Positions 27,835 through 59,585 of a stretch of DNA of 64,000 nucleotides are shown piece by piece. Location: positions 32,001-96,000 of the forward strand of contig JBEKYR010000013.1 of the NCBI GenBank assembly GCA_049510745.1, read 5' to 3'. The notes under the pieces were generated by a model. The model saw only the letters and a program-made list of their open reading frames with translations, was not told where the DNA came from and searched no databases. The position numbers and the translations under genes are program-made. Source of the stretch: Verrucomicrobiota bacterium. Its GTDB lineage: Bacteria > Verrucomicrobiota > Verrucomicrobiia > Limisphaerales > Palsa-1400. Every line of letters begins with the position of its first letter. Position 1 is the stretch's first letter.

Positions 27835-27849
27835 TCAGGATTCGTGCCA
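27835..27849 (-). promoter_or_regulatory. Putative sigma54 promoter for the DUF883 operon
   Basis: TGGCAC-GAATC-CTGA; periodic array at 27920-27959. Confidence 0.6.
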
Positions 27850-28079
27850 AGGCGTTGGATTCGACGTAAGACGCTCATTTGCAATAAGATGATACTTTTT
27901 GTCTGGATTCTTAGGCGTGTCGGGATTTTGAACGTTCGAATTTCCGTGTTTTCAGTGATTGAAAATCCATCGCACTTATGACCAGATATGTTTTTAAGGT
28001 GTGTCAACTGGAAATCCCCCGCGGTTCTCGCTCCGCGCACGCTCAAATGGCGAGCGAGGTGCTCATAGGCGGCGATTAT

Positions 28080-28772
28080 TTACTTGTTCGTCGTGAGCGC
28101 GTCGGCGGATTTGCTCCAAGGTGAACGACGAAGATCCGAGGCAACCTCGGCAAAAATCCCGCCAAACGCTTGATTCCACCCCTCCATCAGCGCGGCGGCG
28201 CTTGGCGCGGTGACCGGTGTGCTGCGCGAATACTCCTGTTGAAGTATTGGTTTTGTCGGCACGCCGTTGCGGGCTTCAAAGAACACCAGGCGCATTGTCA
28301 CGACGGCGCACGGGTGCTCTGACCGTCGAAAGTCTCCATAGAACTGGGTCACGCTGATTTCAACGACGGTATTGGGCTTGAGGGCGCTGCCGGCGTCCAC
28401 CACCTCGCTGAAGCCGCCGGCTCTGCTCAACCATCCGCGCACCGGCGCCATCATCTCTTCCTCTGGCGGGTCCAGGAATTCCGCATACGGATCACGCACG
28501 TACGAGAACTCGCCTGTGCGATAGACCAGCGACCGCCCATCGAATGGCGGGGCGATTCGCAGGGATCTAATGCCCAGAACACGGTCGCCGGCGACGGCGC
28601 TACCAGAGGCGGTTGGCGGCGCGCCAAAGGTGAACGTTTGTTTGTGCAAAGGAGGTTTGGACAGGCAGCCCGACAACGAGAGGACGGCGGCAAGTATGGC
28701 CAAAATACTCACGATCCATCGATGAAAGGCGTGTGAAGTTTTCATAATGTTGGCGCCAGAGCAGGAATTCAT
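28080..28772 (-). CDS. PqiC-like ABC transport auxiliary lipoprotein
   Basis: Lipobox LSGC; LVYR..DPYAEF..P; follows an MCE gene (alternative start 28745). Confidence 0.85.
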   Translation of the reverse strand: MNSCSGANIMKTSHAFHRWIVSILAILAAVLSLSGCLSKPPLHKQTFTFGAPPTASGSAVAGDRVLGIRSLRIAPPFDGRSLVYRTGEFSYVRDPYAEFLDPPEEEMMAPVRGWLSRAGGFSEVVDAGSALKPNTVVEISVTQFYGDFRRSEHPCAVVTMRLVFFEARNGVPTKPILQQEYSRSTPVTAPSAAALMEGWNQAFGGIFAEVASDLRRSPWSKSADALTTNK

Positions 28773-29719
28773 GGTTTTGCCATTGGTTGAACGTTCTTTA
28801 CCGGGACAGGGGGTTTGCCGAGAATGAAGCCGGAGGGGTACTGTTTCAGCTCGAATAAAACATCGTCCGCCTCATGCAACGTGCGCGAAGCGTTGTGCAG
28901 TGTTTGATTCAATGCATCGAAATCAAGGTTCGCCAAGCCGGGCTCCAGCGCGCAGATCACCGCGTCGGCGTCATGTGTCAATTTTTCCAATTGCATTTTT
29001 TTCACAGTGTCGTCGGTGTGATCGAGGAAAGATTGGAGTTTTGCGTTGCTGCCCCGCAGTTCCGTCAACAGGGCGTTGGCATTGGTGCCCAGGCTTTCCA
29101 AGTCTATCCGCTCGACGCGGCCCAGCAAGCGGCCAACCGATTTGAGATCGACTTCAGCCAAATGATCCAAGGCGACCACATCAACCCGATCCAGCTTGTG
29201 CAACGCCTCGCGCATGGAAACGAGCAAATCCCCTATCAAACCCGGCGCCGAAGGAATATAGGTCTGCCGGGGCGTCCATGGAACTTTCAGCGGCGGGTTC
29301 TCAGCCGGGTTCAGAAACTCCAGCGACATAATGCAGGTGCCGGTAACCCCTAGCGCCTTGGGACAAACGCGCAAACCGTGTTCAATGGCCTTCTGGAGCC
29401 GCTCGTTGCGCTCCTTGCCTGGCGGCAAAATGGAAACATCATCGTTCATCTCGAAAACGACCACGACGTAACCCGGTGAGGCATCCTCGTATTCGTTCCA
29501 GGTAAATCCAATGCTGGTGACTTTGCCAACGCGCACGCCTCGAAGTTCAACGGCCGAACCGACTGAAAGCCCGCTCACATCGGTCGTGACATAGGTTTCG
29601 AACATGCTCGACTTTTTAAGGTTGCTCCATACACCGAACGCCAGCAGGCCAGTCACGACAAGGCCCACGCCAATGAAGGCAAACAGGCCGATTTTGAAAT
29701 TGTTTATTTTCGCGCTCAT
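28769..29719 (-). CDS. mlaD: MlaD/MCE family protein with helical C-terminal region
   Basis: N-terminal TM helix; VSGLSVGSAVELRGVRVGKV MCE motif. Confidence 0.9.
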   Translation of the reverse strand: MSAKINNFKIGLFAFIGVGLVVTGLLAFGVWSNLKKSSMFETYVTTDVSGLSVGSAVELRGVRVGKVTSIGFTWNEYEDASPGYVVVVFEMNDDVSILPPGKERNERLQKAIEHGLRVCPKALGVTGTCIMSLEFLNPAENPPLKVPWTPRQTYIPSAPGLIGDLLVSMREALHKLDRVDVVALDHLAEVDLKSVGRLLGRVERIDLESLGTNANALLTELRGSNAKLQSFLDHTDDTVKKMQLEKLTHDADAVICALEPGLANLDFDALNQTLHNASRTLHEADDVLFELKQYPSGFILGKPPVPVKNVQPMAKP

Positions 29720-29733
29720 AAGTATCTGGTTAG

Positions 29734-30513
29734 CTAGGCTCCCAGGGAGTGACTAGGATCAGGTTGACGGTTGAAGAAACGCCGAACCCACGGGTCGGCA
29801 GCCCCATCCCTGAGTTCGGCGGGCTTTCCTTCGGCGATGATCCCCTTGGCGTCGGAGCCAAGCATCACGACGCGGTCGGCGATGGAGTAAATGCTGGGCA
29901 ACTCGTGGCTCACAATCACGAAGGTAAAGCCGAAGTGGTGCAGGCTTGTAATCAAGAGATCGATCCCGGCAGAGGTAATCGGGTCCAGTCCGGCGGACGG
30001 TTCGTCCAGGAACAGAATTCTCGGGTCCAGCGCCATGGCGCGGGCGATGGCCGCCCGTTTCTGCATGCCGCCACTCAATTCGGCAGGCATTTTGTCCGCG
30101 GCGGCGCCCAGCCCGACCAGCCTCAGCCTGGCTAAAGCCGCCACTTCCTTCAACGGATCCGGCAGGTCGGAGAACTCCTCCAGCGGCAGCCGCACGTTCT
30201 CGAGGACCGTTAGGGAGCCGAACAGCGCGCCACTCTGATACATCACGCCAAATTTGCGCAACAGCGACAGCCTCTCTTTCCCCTGTGCTGCCACCATATT
30301 GCCGCCTTCGATCCAAACCTCGCCGGATAGGGGCGGATAAAGCCCGATCATTGCTTTCAACAGGGTGCTTTTGCCCGAACCCGATGCGCCCAGGATCACG
30401 AATACTTCGCCGCGCCGGACTTGAAAGTTTACGTTCTGAAGAATGACGTTGTCTCCATAACCGACAGTCAAGTCTTTGACGGAAATCGCGATGTCGTCAG
30501 GCGCATTCATCAT
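29734..30513 (-). CDS. mlaF: MlaF-family ABC ATPase
   Basis: GASGSGKS, LSGGMQKR, LFLDEPSAGLDP, VSHEL. Confidence 0.92.
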   Translation of the reverse strand: MMNAPDDIAISVKDLTVGYGDNVILQNVNFQVRRGEVFVILGASGSGKSTLLKAMIGLYPPLSGEVWIEGGNMVAAQGKERLSLLRKFGVMYQSGALFGSLTVLENVRLPLEEFSDLPDPLKEVAALARLRLVGLGAAADKMPAELSGGMQKRAAIARAMALDPRILFLDEPSAGLDPITSAGIDLLITSLHHFGFTFVIVSHELPSIYSIADRVVMLGSDAKGIIAEGKPAELRDGAADPWVRRFFNRQPDPSHSLGA

Positions 30514-31646: not shown

Positions 31647-31654
31647 GATAACTC

Positions 31655-34922: not shown

Positions 34923-34926
34923 AATT

Positions 34927-36810: not shown

Positions 36811-37149
36811 TTACTGGAGAAAAGGTTGGAGTTTGGCCAAAATGGCCTCCTTGGTCGCGGTGCCAACGATGCGCAAGCAAGGATTGCCTCGGACAAAATA
36901 GAGCAGCGTTGGAACCGACTGAATCTCGTACCAAAGACTAAGGTCGAGACTGTCATCCGCGTTGACCTTGACCACTTTGACCTTTCCCGCGCAGGCGCTG
37001 GCTAGTTCTCGAAGCACGGAATCGAAGACCTGGCATGGCCGGCTCCAGGGCGCCCAGAACTCGACAAGGACCGGCTGGTTCGATTCCAAGACTTCCGCCT
37101 TGAAATCTTCGGCTGCGATTGGGAGCAGTGCTCCGTTTTGGGTGTTCAT
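36811..37149 (-). CDS. Thioredoxin-fold protein with SxxC (WSRPC) active site
   Basis: PVLVEFWAPWSRPC, VKVNAD, IQSVPTL. Confidence 0.88.
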   Translation of the reverse strand: MNTQNGALLPIAAEDFKAEVLESNQPVLVEFWAPWSRPCQVFDSVLRELASACAGKVKVVKVNADDSLDLSLWYEIQSVPTLLYFVRGNPCLRIVGTATKEAILAKLQPFLQ

Positions 37150-37183
37150 GTTTTCGGGTTTATTGAACATCACCAACCTATAC

Positions 37184-37198
37184 GCACAGGCTGTGCCA
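37184..37198 (-). promoter_or_regulatory. Putative sigma54 promoter for the thioredoxin-TolC-Mdt-Mla operon
   Basis: TGGCAC-AGCCT-GTGC (GG-N10-GC). Confidence 0.7.
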
Positions 37199-37445
37199 CG
37201 GTGGGGGCGAAAACGCAACACGCTCAGGGACACGGTTTTGCACACGGACTGGCCGGGTTCCGCCGGGGTCAGGAAATTGAAGGACCCGAAAAATCGTGCG
37301 GCATTTATGCATCCTCCTGCATCACCATTTCTTCACAGAACCCCGTATGAGTTTTCGTGCATTCGGAAATTCGTGTGCCATCTCCAGCACGATGTCCGGC
37401 AAGCAAGTCCTTGGGAATGATTAGCTTGCGCGCCGGTTTAGGTGT

Positions 37446-37460
37446 TGGCACGCGATCTGT
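37446..37460 (+). promoter_or_regulatory. Putative sigma54 promoter for the K+ channel gene
   Basis: TGGCAC-GCGAT-CTGT; periodic array at 37347-37374. Confidence 0.55.
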
Positions 37461-39409: not shown

Positions 39410-39424
39410 ACATCTTCCGTGCCA
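39410..39424 (-). promoter_or_regulatory. Putative sigma54 promoter for the AI-2E gene
   Basis: TGGCAC-GGAAG-ATGT; periodic array at 39506-39533. Confidence 0.55.
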
Positions 39425-39537
39425 AGTGTGGAGAATTCGCCGTTTCCCTTGCAGGTGGGACAGTTATGCAGATTTCCTCCTTCGGAATGTCCCCACAGAA
39501 CTCCCGCGAGTTTTCGAGTGTTCAAAAAATCGCAGAG

Positions 39538-41133
39538 TCAGGATGGTGCGCGTTCGGGCCTCTTCAGGCCCCACTTGGTCATTCTTGAAAGCAAAGTAGT
39601 AGGCTTGACGCCCAGAAGCTCTGCTGCGCTATCTCGTCCGCTGATCTTCCAGTTGGCCGCTTCCAATGCCAGCACGAGGTTGTCACGTTCGAAGCGTTCA
39701 AGCTCGACTTCGGTGAGGAATTTGGGTTGCGCCACGCTGCCCGCCGGCGAATCGGTCCGAGGATTCGGTCGAGCCGTGGGCACCGCTTGGCCGGTGATAG
39801 GCAGGTCAAACTCCAAAGCCCCGCCGCGGGCCAGAATCACGGAGCGCTCAACCACGTTGCGCAATTCCCGCACATTGCCCGGCCAATCGTAACTCTGCAG
39901 CTTTGTGACTGCGGCCCTCGTCAGCCGGGGCTTGGCGCACTTCAATTCCTTGGCCGAGAGCTCGACAAAATGTTTGGCCAACAGTGGGATGTCATCCATT
40001 CGCTCCCGCAGCGGCGGAACCTGAATCGGAAACACGTTCAGCCGGTAATAGAGATCTTCCCGGAATCGGCCTGCGGCGGCGGCTTTCTTCAAATCCCGGT
40101 TGGTCGCGGCGACAATGCGCACATCGGCGCGGCGTGTCCGGTCGTCGCCGACCCGTTCATACCGCTTTTCCTGGAGTACGCGCAGCAGCTTATTTTGGAT
40201 ATCCAACGGAATTTCCCCCACCTCATCCAGGAAAATGGTGCCGCCCTCAGCCGTCTCGAAGCGTCCGGCGCGATCCTTAACCGCTCCCGTAAAAGAGCCT
40301 CGCACATGGCCAAAAAACTCGCTTTCGAACAGCTCCCGGGGAATGGAGGCGCAATTGACTCGGACCAGGGGTTTATCTTTGCGCCCGCTACGGCGGTGGA
40401 TTTCGTGGGCGACCAATTCTTTGCCCGTGCCGGTCTCGCCGAGAATGAGCACTGAAGCTTCCGTGGGAGCCACCATGTCAATTTGGCTGACCAGGTGTCG
40501 CAGACCAGAACTCTGGCCGACCAAATCGCCGAAGGCCTTGGCTTCCACCACCTCTTCCTGCAAATAGGTATTGTGCAATTCGAGCTGGGACTTGAGCACC
40601 TCGATTTCCTCGAATGCCCGGCGAGCCTTTTCTTCGCTCTCCCGCAGGGCTTGGTTGGAGGCCTGGAGTTCAGCGGTGCGTTCCTGCACTCGGAGTTCCA
40701 GCGTGTTGTGCGCGTTGCGCAGAGCTTCTTCCGCCTGGCGCAGCCGCAAATGCGTTCTGACCCGCGCCAGCACTTCCTCGGCCTCAAAGGGCTTGGTGAT
40801 GTAATCAATGCCCCCGGCCTCAAACCCTGTGACTTTCTGGCGCGTATCGCCAAAGGCGCTAATAAAAATAACCGGGATGCGGCTGCTCTTTTCGTCTGCC
40901 TTCAAGCGACGGCACACCTCATAGCCATCCATGCCGGGCATGCTGACGTCGAGCAGGATCAAGTCTGGAGTCCTGGCGGCTACGGATTCCAGCGCCAGGG
41001 CGCCGTCCTCTGCCGGTCGGACGTGATAGCCGTGCCGGGTCAGCAGTTCGGTCAGCAGACGCAGGCTGGCGGGGGTGTCATCCACCACCAGAATCTCTTC
41101 CCGCCCTGAAGTCGGTTTCTTGTCTTCGCTCAT
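39538..41133 (-). CDS. Sigma54-dependent enhancer-binding response regulator (REC, coiled coil, AAA+, HTH; FhlA-like C-terminus)
   Basis: VVDD/LLDVSMP REC; GETGTGKE, GSFTGA, FLDEVGE, WPGNVREL, AAELLGVKPTTL. Confidence 0.95.
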   Translation of the reverse strand: MSEDKKPTSGREEILVVDDTPASLRLLTELLTRHGYHVRPAEDGALALESVAARTPDLILLDVSMPGMDGYEVCRRLKADEKSSRIPVIFISAFGDTRQKVTGFEAGGIDYITKPFEAEEVLARVRTHLRLRQAEEALRNAHNTLELRVQERTAELQASNQALRESEEKARRAFEEIEVLKSQLELHNTYLQEEVVEAKAFGDLVGQSSGLRHLVSQIDMVAPTEASVLILGETGTGKELVAHEIHRRSGRKDKPLVRVNCASIPRELFESEFFGHVRGSFTGAVKDRAGRFETAEGGTIFLDEVGEIPLDIQNKLLRVLQEKRYERVGDDRTRRADVRIVAATNRDLKKAAAAGRFREDLYYRLNVFPIQVPPLRERMDDIPLLAKHFVELSAKELKCAKPRLTRAAVTKLQSYDWPGNVRELRNVVERSVILARGGALEFDLPITGQAVPTARPNPRTDSPAGSVAQPKFLTEVELERFERDNLVLALEAANWKISGRDSAAELLGVKPTTLLSRMTKWGLKRPERAPS

Positions 41134-45317: not shown

Positions 45318-45338
45318 AACTATTAATAACTTATTGCA

Positions 45339-45641
45339 CGGGAGCTTTTCGAAAGCGAGTTTTTTGGGCATGTGCGAGGGTCTTTCACCGGAGCCGTGAA
45401 GGACCCGGCCGGACGCTTTGAAACGGCGGAGGGCGGGACCATCTTCCTGGATGAGGTGGGGGAGATTCCCTTGGATGTCCAAAACAAGCTGCTGGGCATT
45501 CTCCAGGAAAGAAGTTACGAACGGGTCGGTGACGACCGGACGCGCCGCGCCGACGTGCGCATTGTGGCGGCGACCAACCGGGATCTGAAGAAAGCGGTGG
45601 CCGCGGGCCGATTCCGGGAAGATCTTTATTACCGGCTAAAC
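45339..45641 (+). pseudogene. 303-bp inverted partial copy of the AAA+ coding region of the sigma54 regulator (matches 40036-40338)
   Basis: Translates [19 protein letters not shown]...[10 protein letters not shown] with a few substitutions; lacks Walker A and the C-terminus. Confidence 0.85.
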
Positions 45642-45705
45642 GCGGCGATTTGCGTAACCAGCGGCGGCACCCGTTTCCCGGATAATTCCGATTGTGAAAG
45701 CCCCT

Positions 45706-47802: not shown

Positions 47803-47857
47803 CGAAGTGTGGGAGAAATATGATTTGTTTGCCCGGAGCGCCAACGGCTCCGCCGGG

Positions 47858-48055
47858 CTATTCGTTAAGCCCCCAATGCGGGTATGCCGCCCAGTCGGAG
47901 TGCTCCGACTCCCGAATAGGCAGAGGAACATGCCGCGGCTCTTGTAGTCTCGCTGGAATCAATTCCAGATAGTCCGGCGCGGGCCTGTCCGGCTCCGGCT
48001 CAACCATTTCATGAGCAATATCATCGAGAAATTTAAGAACTGTTTTTCCTTTCAT
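47858..48055 (-). CDS. Small hypothetical protein (65 aa)
   Basis: ORF MKGKTV...YPHWGLNE between rpiB and glgX, same strand. Confidence 0.4.
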   Translation of the reverse strand: MKGKTVLKFLDDIAHEMVEPEPDRPAPDYLELIPARLQEPRHVPLPIRESEHSDWAAYPHWGLNE

Positions 48056-48195
48056 AACTGGCGATTTCGCTGTTGTGCCGGAGTCATTTCTGACTGGTTT
48101 TCGGCGCTTGGCACGGACGTCTTGTCCGCGCAAATCTTCCGCGGATGATCGCCAGTTGAACTGTGTTCTCGTCTGTCATTGGATTCGCCATTTGG

Positions 48196-48645
48196 TTATT
48201 TCGCTTTCTCCAGAGCGGCGACTTTGCCGAGGCGCCGCAGGTGTCTTTCAGCCTGGCTGTACTCCGCCGCTAGAAAGGTCTGAACCAGGTCCCACGCGAC
48301 GGCTGGGCCGACAGTCCGGCCGCCCATGCACAGGACGTTCATGTGGTCGTCTTCAACTCCTTGCCGGGCGGAAAAGTGGTCGTGGATCAGGGAGGCACGG
48401 ACGCCTGGAATCTTGTTCGCGCAAACCGAAGCCCCAACGCCACTGCCGCAAATCGCGATACCGCGTGTCACCTGGCCGGACGCCACAGCGTTCGCGAGCG
48501 GAGTCACATAGTCCGGATAATCGTCGTCGGGTTTAAGTTTGTTGGCCCCGAAATCAACCACTTCGTGGCCCGCGCCATGGAGTTGGGCAACCAACTCTTC
48601 TTTCAGAGCAAAGCCTCCGTGGTCGGTGGCAATTCCTACTTTCAT
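48196..48645 (-). CDS. rpiB: Ribose-5-phosphate isomerase B
   Basis: ATDHGG, DDYPDY, CGSGVG..ANK, NVLCMG, RHLRR. Confidence 0.95.
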   Translation of the reverse strand: MKVGIATDHGGFALKEELVAQLHGAGHEVVDFGANKLKPDDDYPDYVTPLANAVASGQVTRGIAICGSGVGASVCANKIPGVRASLIHDHFSARQGVEDDHMNVLCMGGRTVGPAVAWDLVQTFLAAEYSQAERHLRRLGKVAALEKAK

Positions 48646-48648
48646 AAT

Positions 48649-49734
48649 CTAAGCGGCCCGCTTGAGCGCGTCACTCTTGGAGGCAATTACCGCGAGCAAT
48701 TCGTCCCAGGACTTCACGAAGGCTTTGGCCCCTTCAGTCTGGAGTTGAGCGGCCAGTGCTCCTACGTGGACACCGGCCTCGTTGAGTTGCTCCAGCACAC
48801 TCTCGCAATCGGCTCCATCGGCGGACATGATCGAGCCGAGTGCGCCGTGATCGGCCAGGGCCAGTAACGTGGCTTCCGGCATGGTGTTGACCGTGAACGG
48901 GGCCGCCAGCGCTTTGATATAGAGCACATCCGAGGCTTGAGGGTCCTTGGTGCCGGTGCTGGCCCAAAGCAGTCGTTGCGGTCGGGCACCCGCGTTAAAC
49001 GCGCGCTGCCAGCGAGGCGAGCCCAACAGCTCCAGGTAAACTTTGTAAGTGCGGTTGGCCATTGCGATCCCGAGCTGGTTGTTTAATGCCGCGGGGACTT
49101 TGCCGGCCACCGCGCCATCCCAACGGCTGACGAATACTGATGCGACCGAACCGACGTCCGGCTTGAGTCCCGCAGCGATGCGCCGCTCGACGCCGCGCAT
49201 GAAGGCGTCTGCCGCCGCGAGATATTGCTCGCGTGAAAACAGGAGCGTTACGTTTATGGGTACGCCGGCGAAGATCGCTTCTTCAATTGCGGGCAAGCTT
49301 TCTTTTGTCCCAGGAATCTTGATGAAAACGTTGGGCCGTGCTACGCGGGCGCACAATTCCTTGGCGGCGGCCAGTGTGCTGGCGGCGTCGTAGGCCAGGA
49401 CCGGTGACACTTCCAGGGAAACCCATCCATCCATTCCGTTGGTCTGGTCGAACGTCGGGCGGAAAAGATCCGCCGCCCGGCTGATGTCCTCGAGCGCCAG
49501 CTCGAAAAACAGCGGTTCACCGGATTTCCCTTGGGCGAGCCGGCCCCGAATCGCCGGATCATAAACCCCGCTGTTCTTGATGGCGTGGTCGAAAATGGTC
49601 GGATTGGAGGTCAGACCGGTGATGGAGAGCTCCTCAATGTAGCGCTTGAGCGTCCCCGTGTTGAGCAAGTCGCGGGTGATGTTGTCGAGCCAGAGGCTCT
49701 GGCCAAGATTGTGGAGTAGTTTGGTCGCTTTCAT
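48649..49734 (-). CDS. tal: Transaldolase
   Basis: GQSLWLD, TSNPTIF, IKIP, NVTLLFS, LWASTG, VNTMP. Confidence 0.95.
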   Translation of the reverse strand: MKATKLLHNLGQSLWLDNITRDLLNTGTLKRYIEELSITGLTSNPTIFDHAIKNSGVYDPAIRGRLAQGKSGEPLFFELALEDISRAADLFRPTFDQTNGMDGWVSLEVSPVLAYDAASTLAAAKELCARVARPNVFIKIPGTKESLPAIEEAIFAGVPINVTLLFSREQYLAAADAFMRGVERRIAAGLKPDVGSVASVFVSRWDGAVAGKVPAALNNQLGIAMANRTYKVYLELLGSPRWQRAFNAGARPQRLLWASTGTKDPQASDVLYIKALAAPFTVNTMPEATLLALADHGALGSIMSADGADCESVLEQLNEAGVHVGALAAQLQTEGAKAFVKSWDELLAVIASKSDALKRAA

Positions 49735-49747
49735 GTTTGTTCGTTTT

Positions 49748-51346
49748 TCAATGCACGGCCTCCTGGCTCTGGATCGCGGCATTTACTGCGGCCATCCGCC
49801 CGGAGGAAGTTGTCAGTTCACGAAGCCGCTCGAAAATTGAGGGCTTGAGCATCTCCTCCGTGGAGCGCCAGCGCCAATTGCCAGCGGCGATGCCAGGCAC
49901 GTTCATTCGGCCCTCCACACCCAGATTCAACAAGTCTTGCAGTGGAGCGATTGCGAGGCCCGACTTCGAGGACCACACCGACCGGATAAAGTCCCAGGCG
50001 ATTTCGCCACCCCCGCCGCCAGCCGTTCCCGCATAACTCCTGGCAGCCTGGCGAACATTTTCCGGTAGAAATTCAAACCAGGCCCGAGTGGTGGTATTGT
50101 CGTGCGTTCCCGTGTAGGCGACGGTGTTCGGGACGTAATTGTGGGGGAGATGCGGATTATGTGGACTGCCATCGAAGCCGAACTGGAACACTCGGATTCC
50201 GGGCAGCTCGAACTCATCGCGAAGCGCAACCACATCGGGAGTGATAATGCCGAGGTCTTCGGCAATGAACGGCAAGTGGCCCAACTCCGCGCGGACAGCC
50301 TCGAAGAAAGCAGCGCCGGGCCCCGGGACCCAATAACCACTTTCAGCGGTTTCAGCCGTCGGGGGAACGTGCCAGGCAGCGCAAAACGCTCGGAAGTGGT
50401 CGAGCCGAACCAAGTCCACATGGGCCAACAACGACTTCAGGCGGTCGATGCACCAACGATAACCAGAACGGCGAATTGCTTCCCAGTCATAGACCGGATT
50501 GCCCCAGAGCTGCCCTTTGGCACTGAAATAATCCGGGGGCACGCCGGCCACGAACAGCGGCCGGAGATCGGCATCGAGCTGGAACCACTCGGGGTTGGCC
50601 CAAACATCGCTGGAATCGAGCGACACGAAGAAAGGCAGATCCCCGATAAGGAACACGCCGCGTTCGTGGGCATACTCCTTCAAGCTGTTCCCCTGGCGGG
50701 ACAGCAAGAATTGCGCAAAGCGGCTTTCGTTGATCTCGCCGGCCAGGTCGTGACGTGCGTGCGCCATGGCGGAAGGACTGCGCCTAAGCAAGTCCTCTGG
50801 CCAGTCCAGGAGATTAGCGCCTCCCAAGCGTGCCTTTAAGGCACGAAAGAGCGCGTAGTCGTCAAGCCAGTGAGCCTCTTCCGAACAGAATCGCTCAAAG
50901 TCGGCGCTTAGCTCAGGGCGGTCGGAGGAGTTGAAATTGCGCCAGGCCTGGTCGAGCAATCGGTGCTTGAAAACAGTTACCGCGTCGAACTCAACCGCGC
51001 GCTTTGGGAGGCCTCCGCCTATTGCACAATCCCTTGGGCTGAGCAATCCGTCCTCGATTAGAAGGTCTGGGCTGACCAGCAGTGCATTGCCCGCAAAAGA
51101 GGACAGGCATGAGTAAGGCGAATTGCCATACCCAGTAGGCCCCAATGGCAGCGCCTGCCACCACCCCTGGCCGGCATCGTGGAGCCGGTCCACCCACGCA
51201 AAGGCCGCCGGCCCCACATCACCAATGCCGTAAGGCGACGGCAGCGAGGTCACATGCATCAACACACCGGAGGTACGACAGCCGGGCCTGAATGGCGGAA
51301 GCGCGACTTGATGTTCTGAGAGGAAGCTGTTCATGATATCGGGCAC
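49748..51346 (-). CDS. malQ: 4-alpha-glucanotransferase (GH77)
   Basis: SGVLMHVTSLP, GVPPDYFS..GQLWGNP, RLDHFR, AEDLG, TGTHDN. Confidence 0.95.
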   Translation of the reverse strand: MPDIMNSFLSEHQVALPPFRPGCRTSGVLMHVTSLPSPYGIGDVGPAAFAWVDRLHDAGQGWWQALPLGPTGYGNSPYSCLSSFAGNALLVSPDLLIEDGLLSPRDCAIGGGLPKRAVEFDAVTVFKHRLLDQAWRNFNSSDRPELSADFERFCSEEAHWLDDYALFRALKARLGGANLLDWPEDLLRRSPSAMAHARHDLAGEINESRFAQFLLSRQGNSLKEYAHERGVFLIGDLPFFVSLDSSDVWANPEWFQLDADLRPLFVAGVPPDYFSAKGQLWGNPVYDWEAIRRSGYRWCIDRLKSLLAHVDLVRLDHFRAFCAAWHVPPTAETAESGYWVPGPGAAFFEAVRAELGHLPFIAEDLGIITPDVVALRDEFELPGIRVFQFGFDGSPHNPHLPHNYVPNTVAYTGTHDNTTTRAWFEFLPENVRQAARSYAGTAGGGGGEIAWDFIRSVWSSKSGLAIAPLQDLLNLGVEGRMNVPGIAAGNWRWRSTEEMLKPSIFERLRELTTSSGRMAAVNAAIQSQEAVH

Positions 51347-53931
51347 GGTTGCACCTTCCAGATTTCGGTTGCGTACTGGGCGATGGTGCGGTCGCTGGAG
51401 AACTTCCCTGAGGCAGCCACGTTCAGGATCGCCTTGCTGGCCCAGGCCTCGGGCTCGCGGTACAAATCCACGAGCCGCTGATCCGCCTCGAGGTAGGATT
51501 TCAAGTCCGCCAGATGCATGTAGAAGTCACCGTGGGCCAGGAGCGCATCCAGGATGGGGGAGAAAATGCCCTGCTCTTTTGGGCTGAAATGGTTCGACGA
51601 GATCAAATCCAAGGCCAGCCGTGTTTCCGGTTCGTTCTCATAGTGCCAGCGCGGATTGTACCAGCCGCGCGTCTTAGCAACTTGCTCCGCCGTCAGGCCA
51701 AACAGGAAAAAGTTTTCCTCGCCGGCCTCCTGAACCATTTCGATGGTTGCCCCATCGCGTGTCCCAATCGTCAGAGCGCCATTCATCATGAATTTCATGT
51801 TGCTGGTGCCGCTGGCCTCGTAACCGGCGGTTGAAATTTGATTCGACACATCGCTGGCCGGGACGAGCCGTTCGGCCAAACTCACGCAGTACTCCGGCAA
51901 GAACACCACCTTGAGCCGGCCTCGCACCGCCGGGTCTGCGTCAATGACGGCGGCGAGATTGTTGATGAATTTGATGATGAGCTTGGCCAGGTGATAGGCG
52001 GGCGCCGCCTTGCCGGCGAAGAAGAACGTGCGTGGAGGCAGTTCGAGCTTGGGATTCGCGCTCAGGCGGTTGTAAAGCACGACCACGCGCAGCGCGTTGA
52101 GCAATTGCCGCTTGTATTCGTGGATGCGCTTGATCTGGCAATCGAAGATTGTGTCCGGATCAACGGCCTGCCCGGTGGTTGTCTTCAGCCAGTCGGCAAA
52201 TTTCACTTTGACTTGGCGCTTGGCGTTACGGAAGGACGCTTGAAACCCCGAATCGGCGGCCAAGGATTTGAGCCGGCGCAACTCATTGAGATCGACAATC
52301 CAGCGATCTCCGATGGCCTCGGTGATGGCACGCGCGAGCGGCGGGTTGGCCAGCAACAACCAACGCCGGGGTGTGACGCCGTTGGTCTTGTTGTTGAAGC
52401 GTTCAGGATAGATTTCGGCCAAATCTTTTACCGTAACCGTCCGCAGCAAGCCCGAATGAATCGCCGCCACGCCGTTGGTGCTGTGGGAGCCGACAATGGC
52501 AAGATTGGCCATGCGGACTTTCCGAAACGGCCCTTCTTCGATCAGGCTGACGTTTGCCACCCGCATTTCGTCCCCAGGGTAGCGCAACCGAACGTCATCC
52601 AGGAGCCGGCGGTTGATCTCGAAAATAATCTCCAAATGGCGCGGCAGCATGTCCTGAAACCACTGGACTGGCCATTTCTCGAGCGCTTCCGGAAGCAGGG
52701 TATGGTTGGTGTAAGCCAACACTTTCGTGGTTAACGCCCAAGCCTGGTCCCAGCCGAGATGCGCCTCATCCAGCAGTATCCGCATTAACTCCGGCACCGC
52801 CATCGAGGGATGGGTGTCATTGAGTTGGATCGCCACCTTCTCCGGTAGTTGGTTCCAGTCATCGTTCGTCTGCCGGAAACGCCGCACCAAGTCCCCCAGG
52901 GAACAGGCGACCAGAAAATATTCCTGTATAAAACGCAAGCCCTGGCCGAAGCTGGTCGAATCGTCCGGATAAAGCACGCGCGTGAGCGATTCGGCAGCCA
53001 AACTTGCGGCGACAGCGCTGACGAAATCACCGTGGCTGAACGCTCGAAAGTCAAAGGAATCAGGGGTAGTTGCGGCCCAGAGCCGGAGGGTGTTGATGGT
53101 CTTGCCGCCAAAGCCCACCACGGGCCTATCGTACGGCACACCGATTATCTTTGAAGGCCGCCCCGGAATGGGTAGCAAACTTCCGCCACGCACCTCAAAC
53201 GAGCAGTTCAACGGCACTTCGATTCTCTCCAGAGGGCGCGGCACCTCCCATGGGTCCGGATTGCGCAACCAATTATCCGGCTGTTCCTGTTGCCAGCCGC
53301 CCCTGATGGTCTGTTTAAAGATGCCATACTCATAGCGGAGCCCATAGCCCATCGCCGGGAGGGCCATGGTGGCCATGGAATCCAGAAAGCACGCCGCCAA
53401 ACGTCCCAGCCCGCCGTTGCCCAGGCCGGCGTCCGGCTCCTGGTCCAGGAGTTCCATTGGGTCGGTCTGCTCCCGCATGGCCGCCTGCCTAACGATCGGG
53501 TCAAGCAGAAGATTGGTAATATTATTGGCGAGTGAACGTCCGATCAGGTACTCCATCGAGAGATAGTAAACGCGCTTGGGGTTTCTCCGGGTGTAGTGCT
53601 GTTCGGTGCGAACCCAGCGTTGCGACAACAGGTCGCGCACGGAGCGCGCCAGCGCCTCGAAGCGTTCGCGAGACCCTGCGGCTTCGAGTGCAATGACATT
53701 GTCAAAAGCAAGATGTCGCTCATAGGAAGCGTTGGCGGAGCCTGCGAATTGAACCGGACCACAGGCGTACTGCTCCAGGAGTTCCGCCTCCGCCATTCGG
53801 TTAACCCCATTGTCAAGCGGGTGGACCTCGCCTGGCGAGCGCGGCGCTTTTGCCTGTGATCGATTAGGTTTGGGCAAGGGTTGATCGATCTGATTTCTTG
53901 GAGAGATCGGTTTCAGTATTGTGCTATCCAT
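51331..53931 (-). CDS. glgP: Glycogen/starch phosphorylase
   Basis: GLGNGGLGRLAAC, QLNDTHP, KRIHEYKRQ, EASGTSNMKF; RBS GAGGA. Confidence 0.96.
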   Translation of the reverse strand: MDSTILKPISPRNQIDQPLPKPNRSQAKAPRSPGEVHPLDNGVNRMAEAELLEQYACGPVQFAGSANASYERHLAFDNVIALEAAGSRERFEALARSVRDLLSQRWVRTEQHYTRRNPKRVYYLSMEYLIGRSLANNITNLLLDPIVRQAAMREQTDPMELLDQEPDAGLGNGGLGRLAACFLDSMATMALPAMGYGLRYEYGIFKQTIRGGWQQEQPDNWLRNPDPWEVPRPLERIEVPLNCSFEVRGGSLLPIPGRPSKIIGVPYDRPVVGFGGKTINTLRLWAATTPDSFDFRAFSHGDFVSAVAASLAAESLTRVLYPDDSTSFGQGLRFIQEYFLVACSLGDLVRRFRQTNDDWNQLPEKVAIQLNDTHPSMAVPELMRILLDEAHLGWDQAWALTTKVLAYTNHTLLPEALEKWPVQWFQDMLPRHLEIIFEINRRLLDDVRLRYPGDEMRVANVSLIEEGPFRKVRMANLAIVGSHSTNGVAAIHSGLLRTVTVKDLAEIYPERFNNKTNGVTPRRWLLLANPPLARAITEAIGDRWIVDLNELRRLKSLAADSGFQASFRNAKRQVKVKFADWLKTTTGQAVDPDTIFDCQIKRIHEYKRQLLNALRVVVLYNRLSANPKLELPPRTFFFAGKAAPAYHLAKLIIKFINNLAAVIDADPAVRGRLKVVFLPEYCVSLAERLVPASDVSNQISTAGYEASGTSNMKFMMNGALTIGTRDGATIEMVQEAGEENFFLFGLTAEQVAKTRGWYNPRWHYENEPETRLALDLISSNHFSPKEQGIFSPILDALLAHGDFYMHLADLKSYLEADQRLVDLYREPEAWASKAILNVAASGKFSSDRTIAQYATEIWKVQPCPIS

Positions 53932-53999
53932 ATCGTCCTCTTCAGTTTGTTTTTCGGTGAAAACGCGGGCTTGCGCTATGAGTGTGGAAGGAATGCTGA

Positions 54000-56435
54000 T
54001 CATCGGTTGCCTGGCCAGGTCCACCCATCCATCTCCGGCTTGTCTATGCCGTTCTCATAGGCGTAGGCCTGGCATTCGAGTTGCATGACGCGCAGCTTCT
54101 CCTTGGCGTGAGCGCCGGAGGCGCGCAGGGCCGGCACCCGATCAATTGCGTCCATCGCGATGGTGAAGCGATCAATCTGGTTTCGGATAGCCAGGTCGAG
54201 CGGAGTATTGATGTTGCCTTTCTCTTTGTAGCCGCGCACGTGCAAGTTCTTGTGATTCGTGCGCCGATAAGTAAGCCGGTGAATCAACCAGGGATAACCG
54301 TGGAAGTTGAAGATGATGGGTTTGTCCTCGGTGAACAGTGTATCGAAGTCCCGGTCGGACAGACCGTGCGGATGCTCGCTTGACGGGGTAAGCCGGAAGA
54401 GATCGACCACATTGATAAACCGGATCTTGAGGTTGGGGAAGTGCTCACGCAACAGGATGACGGCCGCGAGCGATTCTTTCGTGGGGATATCTCCGGCGGA
54501 GGCGATGACCACATCCGGCTCCGTTCCCTCGTCGTTGCTCGCCTGAGGCCAAATGCCAAGCCCTTTGGTGCAGTGAGCAATGGCATGGTCCATGGTCATG
54601 TATTGGAGATGCTTCTGTTTATCCGAAACGATCACGTTGATGTAGTTAGTGCTTTTTAGGCAGTGATCCGCGACGCAAAGGAGTGAGTTAGCGTCCGGTG
54701 GTAGATAGATGCGGCAAATCTCGGGACTCTTATTCACGACCAGATCGAGGAAGCCCGGATCCTGATGGGTGAAGCCGTTGTGGTCCTGGCGCCAGACCGT
54801 CGAGGTGATGAGAAGGTTCAGCGATGAAACCGGCGCCCGCCAGGACAACCCGCGGCAGCTCTCCAGCCATTTGGCGTGCTGATTGAACATCGAGTCAATC
54901 ACATGGACGAAAGACTCGTACGTGGAGAAAAACCCGTGACGTCCCGTGAGCAGATAACCTTCGAGCCAGCCTTCCAGCGTGTGCTCCGAAAGCAGTTCCA
55001 TGACCCGACCGTCTGGCGCCAGTTCGCCGCCATCGGCATCTTCGGGCCGGTAATCGGCCAGCCACAGTTTCTTGCTGGCTTCATAAATGGCATCCAGCTT
55101 GTTGGAAGCGGTTTCGTCGGGTCCGAAGACACGGAAGCTCTGCATGTTGTTGCGCATGATGTCCCGCAGGAAGCGTCCCAGGGGTCGCGTGTTCTCAGCC
55201 GTGGTCTGGCCTGGCGCGTCCACCTTGACCGCATAGTCCCGAAAATCGGGGAGACGGAGGGGCTTGCGGAGCAACCCGCCGTTCGCATGGGGATTGGCGC
55301 TCATGCGCCGGCAGCCTTCGGGCGCGAGGGCCTTGAGTTCCGGGATTAGCTTCCCGCTTTTATCGAACAGTTCCTCGGGCCGATAACTGCGTAGCCAAGC
55401 CTCCAACTGCTTCAAATGGGCCGGGTTTTCCCGCACGCCCGCCAACGGCACCTGGTGTGCTCGCCAAAAGCCTTCGACCTTATGGCCGTCCACTTCTTTG
55501 GGGCCTGTCCAGCCCTTGGGGCTGCGCAGAACGATCATGGGCCACCGGGCACGGGTCGCTTTGCCGCTGGCGCGGGCTTCTTGCTGAATGCGCCGGATTT
55601 CGAGCACACAGTTCTCGAGGGTTGCGGCCATCTTCTGGTGCATGTCTGCCGGGTCGCTGCCCTCCACGAAGTAAGGCGTCCAGCCATAGCCCACAAACAA
55701 GGATTCCAGTTCATCGTGCGAGATGCGGGAAAGCACGGTGGGATTGTTGATCTTATAGCCGTTGAGTTGCAGGATGGGCAGCACCGCGCCGTCGCGGATC
55801 GGATTCAGAAACTTGTCCGAATGCCAAGCCGCCGCCAGAGGACCCGTTTCGGATTCTCCATCGCCGACGACTACGGCCACGAGCAGGTCGGGATTATCAT
55901 AGGACGCGCCGAAGGCATGAGAGACGCTATAGCCCAACTCACCGCCCTCATGCATGGAGCCGGGTGTTTCCGGTGTGCAATGGCTGCCGATGCCGCCGGG
56001 GAAGGAAAATTCCTTGAAGAACTCGCGCATTCCTGCTTCGTCCTCGCCCTTGTTGGGATAAACCTCCGAATAGGTGCCCTCGAGGTAGCTCGGTGCCAAT
56101 ACGCCTGGCGCCCCGTGCCCCGGGCCGGCCAGGAAGATCGTGTTCAGATCATACTTTTTGATCAGCCGATTGAGGTGGACATAAATAAAACTCAAACCCG
56201 GACTTGTGCCCCAATGCCCGAGCAATCGCTGTTTGATATGGTCAATCGTAAGCGGTTGGCGCAGCAGCGGATTGGCCCGCAAATAAATCATCCCGGCGGC
56301 CAGGTAATTGCACGCCCGCCAGTAGGCGTCAATCTTGCTGAGTTCCTCTCTGGACATTGCTGGCGCCGGCGCCGGGCGTGCCTCGCCGCGCCGAGTTCTT
56401 TTTCGATCATCGATTACTGTTGCGGTTTCACTCAT
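54000..56435 (-). CDS. xfp: Phosphoketolase (Xfp/Xpk family)
   Basis: [40 protein letters not shown]. Confidence 0.96.
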
Positions 56436-56450
56436 ATTGATACTTCCTTG

Positions 56451-57689
56451 TTAAACGGTTTCAGTTGTTAGTTCTAATTCTCTGGGTGGAGACTTCCATC
56501 GCGCGTCCGAACGAATCACTTGCCGTGTCTCTCGCAGGATGGTCAAATCCTCCCTGCTTGAAATGACCAGGATCCGCCCGGGGGAGGTACGACTGGCGAT
56601 GTCCGCATCGGGCTTGCAGCGCCCATTGGCGGTGGTGTCGAGTTCCAACCCCAGATGGCCGAGGTTTTCGCAGACGAGCTCCCGGACCTGCGCGGAATTC
56701 TCGCCGACGCCAGCCGTGAAGACCAACCCATCAACCCCACCCAGCGTTGCGGCCATCGCGGCGATAGTTTGCACCAGCCGATGGATATAGACTTCCAAGG
56801 CCAGGCGAGCGTCAGGACTGTTTGATGCCTCCTTCAGAATTTGGCGCATGTCAGAAGAAATCCCGGAGAGACCAAGCAGGCCGGACTCGTAGTTCAACGC
56901 GTGGTCAAGTTGTTCCACAGTCAGCCCCTTGTGTCGCAAGAGGTAGAGCAGCACGCCCGGGTCCAGGCTGCCGCTGCGAGTGCCCATGACGACCCCTTCA
57001 AGCGGGGTGAAGCCCATGGACGTATCGACGCAAACGCCGTTGCGGACCGCTGAGACGGAGGCGCCATTGCCCAGATGAGCAATCACAATCCGAGCGCTGC
57101 TGCGACCCAGCATCGCCGCCGCGCGCCGGGAGCAGTAAGCGTGGCTCAAACCGTGAAAGCCGTAACGATAGATTCCCCACTTAGTTGTCCAGGTCCGGGG
57201 TATGGCGTAGGTCCGCGCCGCGGTCGGCAAAGTGGCGTGAAAGGCCGTGTCGAACACCGCTACCTGCGGTACTGAGGGCAAGACTCTTCCAATAGCGCAT
57301 ATCCCCTCAAGCCCGGCCATGTTATGCAGCGGCGCCAGATCACAGAGTTCATGAATGGCGTCTTGAACCTCCACGGTGATCCGCACGGCTGCTGTGAACC
57401 GCGTTCCCCCATGCACGATCCTGTGCCCAACCGCCGCAGGTTCGTCATTGCGCAGCAAGGGCGCGAGGGGGCCAGTGCGGAGGTCTGAAAGGATTCGCGA
57501 AAAGGCCTCGCCATGCTCCCGCAGATGCAATTCCTCCCGTATCTCAGGTTGGCCGGGATAGCGGAGCCTGAGCTGCGTTGGCTGGGTCGCCCAATCAATG
57601 CTGCCGTCGGCCAGAAGCAACTCCTGCTCCGCCTCGAACAGGCTGAACTTGAGACTGCTGGATCCGGAGTTGCAAACGCCGATTTTCAT
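56451..57689 (-). CDS. ackA: Acetate kinase
   Basis: NSGSSSLK, GHRIVHGG, FDTAFH, HLGNGAS, TSMGFTPLEG, FTAGVGEN. Confidence 0.96.
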   Translation of the reverse strand: MKIGVCNSGSSSLKFSLFEAEQELLLADGSIDWATQPTQLRLRYPGQPEIREELHLREHGEAFSRILSDLRTGPLAPLLRNDEPAAVGHRIVHGGTRFTAAVRITVEVQDAIHELCDLAPLHNMAGLEGICAIGRVLPSVPQVAVFDTAFHATLPTAARTYAIPRTWTTKWGIYRYGFHGLSHAYCSRRAAAMLGRSSARIVIAHLGNGASVSAVRNGVCVDTSMGFTPLEGVVMGTRSGSLDPGVLLYLLRHKGLTVEQLDHALNYESGLLGLSGISSDMRQILKEASNSPDARLALEVYIHRLVQTIAAMAATLGGVDGLVFTAGVGENSAQVRELVCENLGHLGLELDTTANGRCKPDADIASRTSPGRILVISSREDLTILRETRQVIRSDARWKSPPRELELTTETV

Positions 57690-57790
57690 GGATCATTTTC
57701 AGGAAGCGCCGTCATCCCACTTAGCAGTGAAGAGGAAGACGAACCGGCCAAAAACCAAAGCAGTATGAACATCTGTTTCTCCAGGGTCAT
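57686..57790 (-). CDS. 34-aa small ORF, ATGA-coupled at both ends
   Basis: MTLEKQMFILLWFLAGSSSSSLLSGMTALPENDP exactly fills the gap between the DUF5698 gene and ackA. Confidence 0.4.
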   Translation of the reverse strand: MTLEKQMFILLWFLAGSSSSSLLSGMTALPENDP

Positions 57791-58374
57791 GAGATGCCTC
57801 TTTTGAAGGATGCGAGCCTCTCTAAAGGAAAGAACCACGAACGCTTGCGCTGGCTGGCTTTCGGGGCTCCGCGTTCAGCAAAGTCCACCTGGCGGATGTC
57901 GTGGAGGATGAAGTCGCAGTGCTCATCAACGGTACTGGCAAGGCGAATCAACTTTTGTACGTCGCGCCGCGGAATTTCCACGCAGAGTATCGTCCGATCA
58001 CCCTCGCGGATATGTCCCTTGACTTCGGCCACTTGGTAGTTCCCGGCGCGCAAGACTTCGGCCAATTCTGGTCCTTTGGGGGTGAGGAGAAACACCAATT
58101 GCTTGCCAAAGGCCAGCCGTTGTTCGATGACCATTCCCAGGTAAGTCCCTATCGCGAACCCCAGCCCGTAGGCGATAGCATACACGGGCTGATTCACGTT
58201 CAGCAGGACCTTGGCGACGGCACAAATATAGACAACCGCCTCGAAGAACCCGAGAACTCCGGCGAACGCGCGCCGGCCTTGGATGACCGAGACCATGCGG
58301 ATGGTGTCCAAGGAAACGTCTGTGATCCGGGCCAGGACGATAAGGCAGAACGTTATGAGTACGGTAATGTTCAT
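57787..58374 (-). CDS. UPF0316/DUF5698-DUF2179 family membrane protein
   Basis: ARITDVSLDTIR, GFFE, AYGLGFAIGTYLG. Confidence 0.85.
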   Translation of the reverse strand: MNITVLITFCLIVLARITDVSLDTIRMVSVIQGRRAFAGVLGFFEAVVYICAVAKVLLNVNQPVYAIAYGLGFAIGTYLGMVIEQRLAFGKQLVFLLTPKGPELAEVLRAGNYQVAEVKGHIREGDRTILCVEIPRRDVQKLIRLASTVDEHCDFILHDIRQVDFAERGAPKASQRKRSWFFPLERLASFKRGIS

Positions 58375-59013
58375 TTAGCAATTTGGATTTATTCCAGTCA
58401 TGGCATCGGCGATGCCCCCGGACCTTTGCCGCAGGGAAAGGTGGTGTGCGGGCCAGGCGTCCATGGGCGTGACATCCGGGCCGGGATTGAACGTGAATCG
58501 GACGAGGTTTTTGAGGTTCAGGATCGAGATGCCTCCCTGCAACAACCGGAAGTGGACTGCAGGCGCGGAGAAGAGCATGTGCAGCCGTTGAAGCCGTTCC
58601 GCTTCCACTGCTACTTGGATTTCAGCCGCCAGAAATATTCGACTCCCGCCAGTCATTTCGACTTCCACATAGACTACGGCGAACTCGCCTGTCCGTTTCG
58701 GGCTTCGGCGTCGCTCCAGCCGCGCCGGGTCGTTCACGTGGCTTCGTTCTTGGAAATCGTCCTCGGGCAACTCGACCATATCCAAGATGTCGGTGGGCTG
58801 TTCCCACAGAGGGAGATCTTCGGCGATAAGGTCAACGCGGTTGACCCGCGCAGCGACGAAAGACGTCAGGGAATACTCGCCGGCAATGGTAATGACGTTG
58901 CCGGCAAAAACTCTTGAGGGCTGGATTTCCTTCAATATACGAGCTGCCAGGGCCGGATTGTCTTGGAAAAAAGCCCCGACCGAACCTCCCTGGGTATGAA
59001 TTAGAATTTTCAT
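58375..59013 (-). CDS. Hypothetical protein
   Basis: 212-aa ORF at the head of the operon, abutting the next gene. Confidence 0.7.
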   Translation of the reverse strand: MKILIHTQGGSVGAFFQDNPALAARILKEIQPSRVFAGNVITIAGEYSLTSFVAARVNRVDLIAEDLPLWEQPTDILDMVELPEDDFQERSHVNDPARLERRRSPKRTGEFAVVYVEVEMTGGSRIFLAAEIQVAVEAERLQRLHMLFSAPAVHFRLLQGGISILNLKNLVRFTFNPGPDVTPMDAWPAHHLSLRQRSGGIADAMTGINPNC

Positions 59014-59195
59014 GTTGTGAATTTTCTATCGTCGTTCAGTTCAACAAGCCTGTGTCCATTCCTCCCGTAATGCGACAGATGGCTCTCGATGTTCGCCAAA
59101 ATTCTTGGCCCATATTCATGAGGGCCGCTTTGGCGCTTGAGACTCGGCGCTTGTTCATATTGTTGAATGCAATTCGCATACAAAACCCGAATTGC

Positions 59196-59210
59196 GCAGG
59201 TAACATGCCA
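59196..59210 (-). promoter_or_regulatory. Putative sigma54 promoter for the ackA-xfp-glgP operon
   Basis: TGGCAT-GTTAC-CTGC; periodic array at 59281-59300. Confidence 0.7.
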
Positions 59211-59570
59211 ACTATCTCGGAAATGCAGAAGCTGCTGAGGTTGACATACTAACGACTCACAAGCGGCTCGCGGCTCAGGCTCGAAACTTCGAATGTTCGA
59301 AAAACAAAGTTTCTTGCGACTTCCTGGTATTGGACAGGCACGCCTCCGCCGGACATGAGCGGCCTGGCAGAACCGTATCACTGAGAACGCCACAAGGACT
59401 GCAGCGAGCGTTTCACTTGCGTCCGGAAATGGGCGCCTGCCTGCGTACACGAGGAACCGAACGAACGATTGTCTGTTTTTCGAGTCTTCGAAATTCCGAG
59501 CCTCAGCCTACGAGTCGGTTCTAAGCCGTTACCACTTGAAGCCCAGCACCTTATGCATTGCGAAGATAGC

Positions 59571-59585
59571 TGGCACGGCCATTGC
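59571..59585 (+). promoter_or_regulatory. Sigma54 promoter for the TetR-RND operon
   Basis: Consensus match TGGCAC-GGCCA-TTGC; periodic array at 59480-59499. Confidence 0.8.

Follow-up and report, generated by a model that had tools for sequence, protein, structure and literature searches.

How are promoters that lie far apart on one chromosome, and that head operons of quite different content, brought under the control of a single regulator, and by what DNA site would that regulator find them? The question is raised by a stretch of Verrucomicrobiota DNA (the window: 64,000 nucleotides, positions 32001-96000 of contig JBEKYR010000013.1, contig C13 of genome G000), in which a reading made from the sequence alone had noticed six sigma54-type promoters, each preceded by an array of TCG units with an 8-bp period, and had proposed the arrays as the site of an enhancer-binding protein encoded at 39538..41133. 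Positions below are those of the window, unless preceded by a contig or locus name. Taken as a whole, the material is best explained if the arrays are an enhancer for a sigma54 activator with an FhlA-type helix-turn-helix (HTH) domain, and if the activator encoded in the window drives these six promoters (module A), a reading that we hold to be very likely. Five more promoters of the same design (module B) are located just beyond the window, on the same genomic island.

Tandem palindromes before sigma54 promoters

All six TGGCAY-N5-NTGN elements are present at the positions and on the strands first reported, and each of the six quoted arrays occurs literally, and once, at its reported start. 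The distances between array and promoter, counted from the final G of the proximal palindrome up to the T of the TGG, were reproduced as 71, 71, 72, 82, 71 and 72 bp for promoters 27849, 37198, 37446, 39424, 59210 and 59571, respectively. The T that the sequence-only reading called -24 is conventionally numbered -26.

The composition of the arrays differs from that first described. Each array consists of two 10-bp CG-N6-CG dyads, which are 16 bp apart in five of the six cases and 17 bp apart at 37198 (steps of 8, 9 and 8), and the apparent 8-bp period is a by-product that arises solely where the dyad spacing is 16. A pure 8-bp tandem repeat was rejected on the spacings in metagenomes, which are 16 bp in 16, 17 bp in 77 and 18 bp in 22 of the 115 matches listed. 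The overlapping TCG-N6-CGA palindrome, initially put forward as the binding unit, is the junction of two dyads, since its length varies (6, 7 or 8) and that of CG-N6-CG is constant; the unit is a tandem of CGA-N4-TCG. Paired dimer sites at a set spacing and distance before sigma54 promoters are a textbook arrangement.

To avoid circularity, the motif was learned on promoters beside homologous activators of other genomes. Training used 77 loci (79 less the two closest, L054 and L055), of which 38 have a sigma54-like site near the activator gene start and 39 do not. De novo expectation maximisation on the upstream DNA of the 38 promoters yielded the palindrome ACGAaATTTCGT, and at width 30 a tandem emerged, whose confident sites end 65-72 bp before TGG in 20 of 31 cases. 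The resulting matrix replaced a hand-made dyad score, which had separated island and background poorly. Applied as a tandem at 70-74 or 81-83 bp, it places the 11 island promoters at ranks 1-11 of the 497 sigma54-like sites of the genome, with the six window promoters at ranks 1, 2, 3, 5, 7 and 9. If the distance is left unconstrained, the best tandem site is at 70-73 bp in 10 of the 11 island promoters, and at 82 bp in one. Dinucleotide shuffles reached the observed scores of the window six 0, 0, 2, 3, 9 and 11 times per 500, and those of the other five between 1 and 63 times per 500. The set is therefore not the six promoters originally counted, as 11 were found, in two modules.

The same design is present in other genomes. 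Of the 138 sigma54-like sites in the stretches fetched from relatives, 22 score at least 9 (many of them orthologous), and these are found at 68-74 bp in 17 cases, at 81-82 in four and at 51 in one; the scan of the genome and its relatives that the sequence-only reading had suggested as a check came out in its favour, in the genome ranking and in the clustering of relatives' sites at set distances. G016 and G017 have kept both the module-A arrays and the orthologous activator. An exact pattern, with the gap free between 55 and 85, found 35 matches in 27 of the 301 genomes of the order, 29 of which have a total length of 101-105 (87-119 being allowed), and a reversed control pattern found none in the same 301 genomes. 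Metagenomes contributed at least 115 unique matches (six duplicates having been removed from 121). Among those listed, 79 of 115 lie at 66-73 bp, 33 at 55-60 and one each at 65, 74 and 83, with none at 61-64 or 75-82; the distance peaks are about 12 bp apart, near one helical turn.

These matches also point to a binding protein. Among the metagenome matches listed, 25 are flanked by 3 kb or more on each side. At 23 of these a complete FhlA-type-HTH activator lies within 4 kb, no activator was detected at the other two, and an activator of another HTH type accompanies none of the 25; the background rate of the FhlA-type HTH pattern is one in 662 genome tiles. The dyad pair and its phased distance recur in unrelated phyla, before unrelated genes. 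Since this enhancer design is found beside a widespread and little-studied activator family in many phyla, it probably gives the binding site of that family. Variant cores, CAA-N4-TTG and TGA-N4-TCA, were seen in the same tandem geometry at L071, L072 and L073 (Nitrospira-type) and at L090, L120 and L121, which suggests subfamily-specific readout.

The activator, its kinase and the likely signal

The activator gene (39538..41133, minus strand) encodes a receiver, an AAA+ domain and an FhlA-type HTH, and its product is likely the cognate regulator of module A. It is a bacterial enhancer-binding protein (PF00158, 1e-71) with GSFTGA as a variant of the GAFTGA loop and a C-terminal HTH_8 domain, and its closest named homologues are from Verrucomicrobiota. 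Alignment with Escherichia coli FhlA defines the FhlA-type HTH by a three-residue insertion before the HTH and a recognition helix K-[PR]-[TS]-T-L-x-S-R-M, features that are absent from the 11 other activators of the genome and from NorR in the same alignment. The assembly has one rpoN gene and, besides a fragment, 12 full-length sigma54 activators, among which that of the window is the only intact one of FhlA type. The same HTH is present in PexR-type proteins from ahpC-pexR loci, and homologues of the activator include those of cynF-cynABDS loci (one in L109); the Pseudomonas proteins, first taken for NitA, are CynF. In a phylogenetic tree the clade of the window activator is supported at 100/99. 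One of the arrays lies 6 bp beyond the activator stop codon. Given the sole FhlA-type protein among 12 and the link between site and HTH across phyla, the 39538..41133 product very probably uses the arrays as its upstream activator site; this part of the original proposal stands as a prediction, whereas its binding unit and the size of its promoter set do not.

Directly upstream in the same orientation lies the gene for a hybrid histidine kinase (41130..45317, minus strand; likely ATG at 45317), with an N-terminal GAF domain bearing the motif CxxCx5Cx5C, then PAS, GAF, three PAS-type regions, HisKA, HATPase and a receiver. Kinase residues 1 to ~193 align with the GAF part of homologues that are one-component proteins (GAF-AAA-HTH), activator residues from 172 onward align with the remainder of these proteins, and the two halves meet at NARAF(D/E)E. 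The identical split occurs in G016, G017 and L054. Judged by these alignments, kinase and activator are a one-component GAF-AAA-HTH gene that was split by the insertion of PAS, kinase and receiver parts. Between glgX and the kinase lies an inverted 310-bp fragment of the AAA domain of a paralogous activator (45333..45642, plus strand; 87% identical). A longer copy of such a fragment is found at the matching place in G017, whose main activator copy contains stops.

The four cysteines, a candidate cluster for an Fe-S or metal redox sensor, are retained in 26 of 38 homologous GAF domains. A structural model of the domain has a confident GAF fold (pLDDT, the predicted local distance difference test, of 88). 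A sequence search with it against solved structures returned nothing significant, the fold search returned generic GAF domains at 10-20% identity and no close solved relative, and an Atlas search returned unnamed GAF clusters. Further hints come from the targets. The first gene behind promoter 37198 encodes a thioredoxin-family protein with a one-cysteine WSRPC motif (36811..37149, minus strand), homologues of which are present in 18 fetched loci (L028-L132) and are by far the commonest shared target. In Verrucomicrobiota, activators with a four-cysteine GAF usually have a one-cysteine WSxPC thioredoxin as their divergent partner (L056, L057, L059, L061, L062, L065). This thioredoxin, the route from glycogen to acetate through phosphoketolase and acetate kinase, the universal stress proteins (USPs) and the DUF883 proteins argue for redox, low oxygen or general stress as the signal, an assignment that we would put at even chances.

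The kinase and activator genes lie 3' of glgX, the last gene of the operon behind promoter 59210, on the same strand, which makes positive feedback from 59210 plausible. A terminator scan of 45200-59700 was uninformative, with 12 candidates against 16.5 expected and none between glgX and the kinase. The activator gene is itself probably transcribed from 59210, in a predicted feedback loop.

Promoters and genes of the island

Having -24/-12 elements upstream of genes, positioned dyads further upstream and an rpoN gene in the genome, the six window promoters are predicted to be enhancer-dependent sigma54 promoters. Their positions were given correctly by the sequence-only reading, whose account of the transcription units overlooked two first genes, DUF883 behind 27849 and the thioredoxin behind 37198. 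The element at 27835..27849 (minus strand, GA at -12) heads a DUF883 gene of ElaB/YqjD type (27482..27778, minus strand; identified by Pfam), hypothetical open reading frames (ORFs), and genes for a PagL-like protein, MlaA and a PilT-like ATPase; its dyads, CGGAAATTCG and CAAAATCCCG, occupy 27921..27946 (minus strand), and a putative site for integration host factor (IHF), with one mismatch to what we take to be the consensus, lies between enhancer and promoter at 27882..27894 (minus strand). The element at 37184..37198 (minus strand), with dyads CGATTTTTCG and CAATTTCCTG at 37270..37296 (minus strand), heads the thioredoxin gene and those for a TolC-type OEP, HlyD, FUSC, MlaE-STAS, an ABC ATPase, MlaD and an auxiliary lipoprotein. 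On the plus strand, the element at 37446..37460 (GT at -12) heads an Ion_trans_2 (K+ channel-like) gene; its dyads, TGAGTTTTCG and CGGAAATTCG at 37348..37373, have the top tandem score of the whole genome, and a second IHF-like site, also one mismatch from that consensus, lies at 37401..37413 (plus strand). The element at 39410..39424 (minus strand, GT at -12) heads the gene for an AI-2E family transporter, and its dyads, CGATTTTTTG and CGAAAACTCG at 39507..39532 (minus strand), form the array next to the activator stop codon.

The last two promoters of the window diverge. The element at 59196..59210 (minus strand), with dyads TTGTTTTTCG (distal half degenerate) and CGAAGTTTCG at 59282..59307 (minus strand), heads the operon 45706..59013 (minus strand), which comprises a hypothetical gene, DUF5698, ackA, xfp, glgP, malQ, tal, rpiB and glgX. 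The element at 59571..59585 (plus strand), with dyads CTGTTTTTCG (distal half degenerate) and CGAAATTCCG at 59473..59498 (plus strand), heads genes for a TetR/CecR regulator, a membrane-fusion protein and an AcrB-type pump. The two promoter regions are an inverted duplicate of each other, so that the window promoters represent five independent cases, not six. Canonical GC at -12 is present in three of the six. Eight RNA runs contained 5-12% of the query words, all as assembled contigs of relatives.

Module B comprises promoters at C13:98671, 100620, 105962, 107138 and 109093, all five with a dyad spacing of 17 bp, and heads genes for FtsH, two BON proteins, LigD parts, a rhomboid protein, two USPs, DUF883, a holin-like protein and a glycogen-binding protein. 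Outside the core, T is the flanking base at 16 of the 24 half-sites of module A, and G at 16 of the 20 of module B, of which nine have an intact CG. Between module-B promoters, behind a truncated FtsH gene, lies the remnant of a second FhlA-type activator (C13:100173-100463, plus strand; L002:4173-4463), which consists of the end of the AAA lid and an intact HTH; a deletion joined the truncated FtsH to this last part of the activator. The remnant shares 70-76% identity with activators of G008, G012, G014, G019, G001 and G002, and 49% with the window activator. Several of these related activators have module-B-type arrays alongside, and thus the type of site follows the type of activator. Module B is now without an activator, or else the surviving one reads it; the remnant, if translated, could occupy module-B sites without activating.

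All 11 promoters lie on a 57.5-kb island bounded by a tRNA-Arg repeat. The tRNA-Arg(TCT) gene is at 20628-20704 (plus strand), and its 3' part with flanking DNA (20655-20721) recurs at G000:C13:110262-110328 as a 67-bp direct repeat of 94% identity; a direct repeat of the tRNA 3' end, as in a tRNA-integrated island, is present at both borders. None of the 14 PF00589 (tyrosine integrase) matches of the genome is on C13 (serine integrases were outside this search), and base composition is not atypical (GC 0.579 vs 0.603). The island carries duplicated DUF883, USP, BON and activator pieces. Outside the island, and adjoining it, is a chemotaxis cluster (7872-20542) with cheW, a methyl-accepting chemotaxis protein gene, cheA, cheR, cheD, HDOD, cheB and cheX, together with fliG and fliM; within it a stretch of receiver genes is duplicated (16367-17169 vs 18607-19411, 86% identical). 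Three small and otherwise unrelated ORFs of G000 share the ending H/Y/F-W-G-[IL]-N-E-stop: C13:106030-106284 (plus strand), directly 3' of promoter 105962, one near C13:79858 (minus strand) and one near C31:77964 (minus strand). Two of the three are on the island, and such ORFs were also seen in L018, L025 and L054. High-scoring tandem dyads off the island include those at C9:50464, C24:60475, C2:71673 and C34:35681 of G000.

Mechanism, alternatives and known systems

In the mechanism that we propose, a stress signal would reach the kinase through its four-cysteine GAF and PAS domains, and the kinase would phosphorylate the activator. Two activator dimers would bind the two CGA-N4-TCG palindromes, 16-17 bp apart and centred near -102 and -118 relative to the predicted start, and nucleate the AAA+ ring; a short loop would then bring them to promoter-bound sigma54-RNA polymerase, and the promoter would open. 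The ring and loop steps follow the established model of bacterial enhancer-binding proteins. The distance would be kept in helical phase (about 58, 70 or 82 bp), and bending by IHF or HU, for which the genome has two genes, probably assists at some promoters. The phosphorylated activator would turn on the six module-A promoters, with positive feedback through 59210, and the module-B promoters would have originated as targets of a second member of this activator family, now reduced to its C-terminal end.

Several observations weigh against this account. A stricter matrix, trained on the 25 loci that remain once 13 are removed as closest or as labelled Verrucomicrobiota, returned the same consensus as full training, and with the distance free it ranks the window six at 1, 22, 31, 37, 53 and 125 of 497; it puts 59210 at 125 and 59571 at 37, and neither peaks at 71-72 bp. 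Elsewhere in the genome there are 91 strong tandem matches (score >14), counted irrespective of any promoter. Many of the metagenome and relatives' matches are orthologous (cynA, or the island itself), so that the counts overstate independence. GC at -12 is missing in six of the 11 island promoters (27849, 37446, 39424, C13:98671, C13:100620 and C13:105962), which have GA or GT instead, a deviation that is retained at the orthologous window promoters of G016 and G017. IHF-like sites (at most one mismatch to the presumed consensus) are present in only five of the 11 island spacers, compared with 21 of 366 controls of differing composition. The tree leaves the sisterhood of PexR and FhlA to the window clade unsettled (support 82/2), and the assembly is 94% complete, so that another activator could be missing from it.

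This last point bears on the possibility that the dyads are bound by some other protein, such as the island TetR, a nucleoid protein or an activator that the assembly lacks, and that the window activator acts elsewhere. Binding of the window activator is a prediction, and module B sets a precedent for promoters that outlive their cognate activator. Nevertheless, we regard another binder as improbable in view of the 23 well-flanked metagenome matches with an FhlA-type activator nearby, the array 6 bp behind the activator stop codon and the joint conservation of arrays and activator in G016 and G017. Still less credence is due to passive similarity, in which the island promoters were copied from one ancestor and resemble each other by descent, and not by current selection. 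The inverted duplicate at 59210/59571 and the duplicated gene pieces of the island would fit such copying, but the spacers between array and promoter of the other nine promoters have no visible similarity, the DUF883 paralogues have different array types, and the recurrence of the dyad pair with its phased distance before unrelated genes of unrelated phyla speaks against it; we consider it very improbable.

An extension of our preferred explanation would make all 11 promoters one regulon, the surviving activator having captured module B and reading arrays of both spacings. The recognition helices of the two activators are nearly identical (KPTTLLSRM vs KPTTLVARI), module A already includes one 17-bp array, and a single matrix finds all 11 promoters. 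Against this stand the systematic difference in flanks and the incomplete CG cores of module B, its FtsH gene truncated by the same deletion, and its absence from G016 and G017 in the syntenic stretches fetched, and we lean moderately away from the extension. More tentative, and somewhat doubtful, is the broadest version, in which a large cross-phylum FhlA-type clade, with CynF and a four-cysteine-GAF family among its members, would share a phased CGA-N4-TCG enhancer grammar with flanks and 16-, 17- or 18-bp spacing as a paralogue code, combined with conversion of a redox-sensing activator from one to two components, capture of module B and an 11-operon low-oxygen or dormancy island with feedback.

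Tandem dyads at a set distance are already known, and so is a validated site with the same core, that of PexR. The sequence-only reading had not recognised the architecture from any described system, but PexR of Myxococcus xanthus, in the available text, recognises tandem dyads built on this CG-n6-CG core: it acts via tandem CACCG-n6-CGGTG, as established by chromatin immunoprecipitation, electrophoretic mobility-shift assays and mutagenesis (PMC12754779). The two systems have in common an FhlA-type HTH, tandem dyads of this core upstream of sigma54 promoters and a GAF input that senses, or in the window may sense, metal or redox state. The PexR system, as far as that text goes, differs in its three dyads with CAC/GTG flanks and 18- and 14-bp steps, its His/Cys/Asp GAF site, its one-component wiring and its small ahpC/katB regulon; that of the window has two dyads at 16-17 bp, a four-cysteine GAF on a kinase and 6-11 operons. 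At ahpC-pexR loci one dyad is CGA-N4-TCG at 73-74 bp in seven of the nine parsed (L147 and L148, with no PexR ORF or promoter parse, are outside these counts). The window activator is not a PexR orthologue, as a receiver replaces the GAF domain, flanks and targets differ and it belongs to a separate branch.

CynF belongs to the same activator clade and goes with the same tandem dyad: in the published cynA promoter of Pseudomonas pseudoalcaligenes CECT5344 (PMC6627978 Fig. S1), two dyads with 17-bp spacing precede the sigma54 site by 58 bp. In the available passages CynF differs in its PAS inputs, cyanate signal and single operon, and neither these text passages nor the legend of Fig. S1 mark a CynF binding site (PMC6627978). 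Orthology to CynF is not indicated, as there are no cyn genes among the scanned island proteins. FhlA and HyfR share the HTH signature, and the half-site ACGAAAT/ATTTCGT lies within their published consensus CATTTCGTACGAAATG; the geometry of FhlA sites, in the text available, is different, being a tail-to-tail consensus or a 14-bp TGWC-N6-GWCA matrix (PMC4987338, PMC7658346). No tandem was seen at hyc/hyp of E. coli, and fdhF has a single dyad. Nor is the window activator an orthologue of FhlA, with an NCBIfam FhlA score of 359 against a cut-off of 830 and no formate-sensing domains, FhlA-type site or hydrogenase targets.

Two other systems resemble this one in organisation, so far as the accessible text describes them. 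NmpRSTU, of M. xanthus oxygen utilisation, has a kinase-driven sigma54 activator, paired sites at a preferred spacing, autoregulation and a USP target, but differs in its GCGCA-N5-TGCGC site, its sensor and its genes, which are not on one island (PMC11841059). The lxa locus of Burkholderia cenocepacia clusters stress genes, USPs, acetate kinase, an ATP-dependent Zn protease and storage-polymer turnover under one shared motif; that motif is an Fnr-like TGA-N6-TCA, and no mention of sigma54 was found in the available text (PMC3721108). In the literature within reach, which excluded figures and subscription papers, we found no account of the CGA-N4-TCG tandem as a clade-wide or CynF site, and no description of a family of four-cysteine-GAF activators.

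The island offers a natural experiment on specificity, with two paralogues and two types of flank and spacing, and another on the passage from a one-component sensor to a two-component system. More generally, our analysis makes the binding site predictable for a widespread clade of activators, most of which, CynF included, have none assigned. The CynF host, Pseudomonas, is culturable and genetically tractable, and the regulons of these activators would then become readable from the genomes of uncultured Verrucomicrobiota, Acidobacteriota, Nitrospirota and others.

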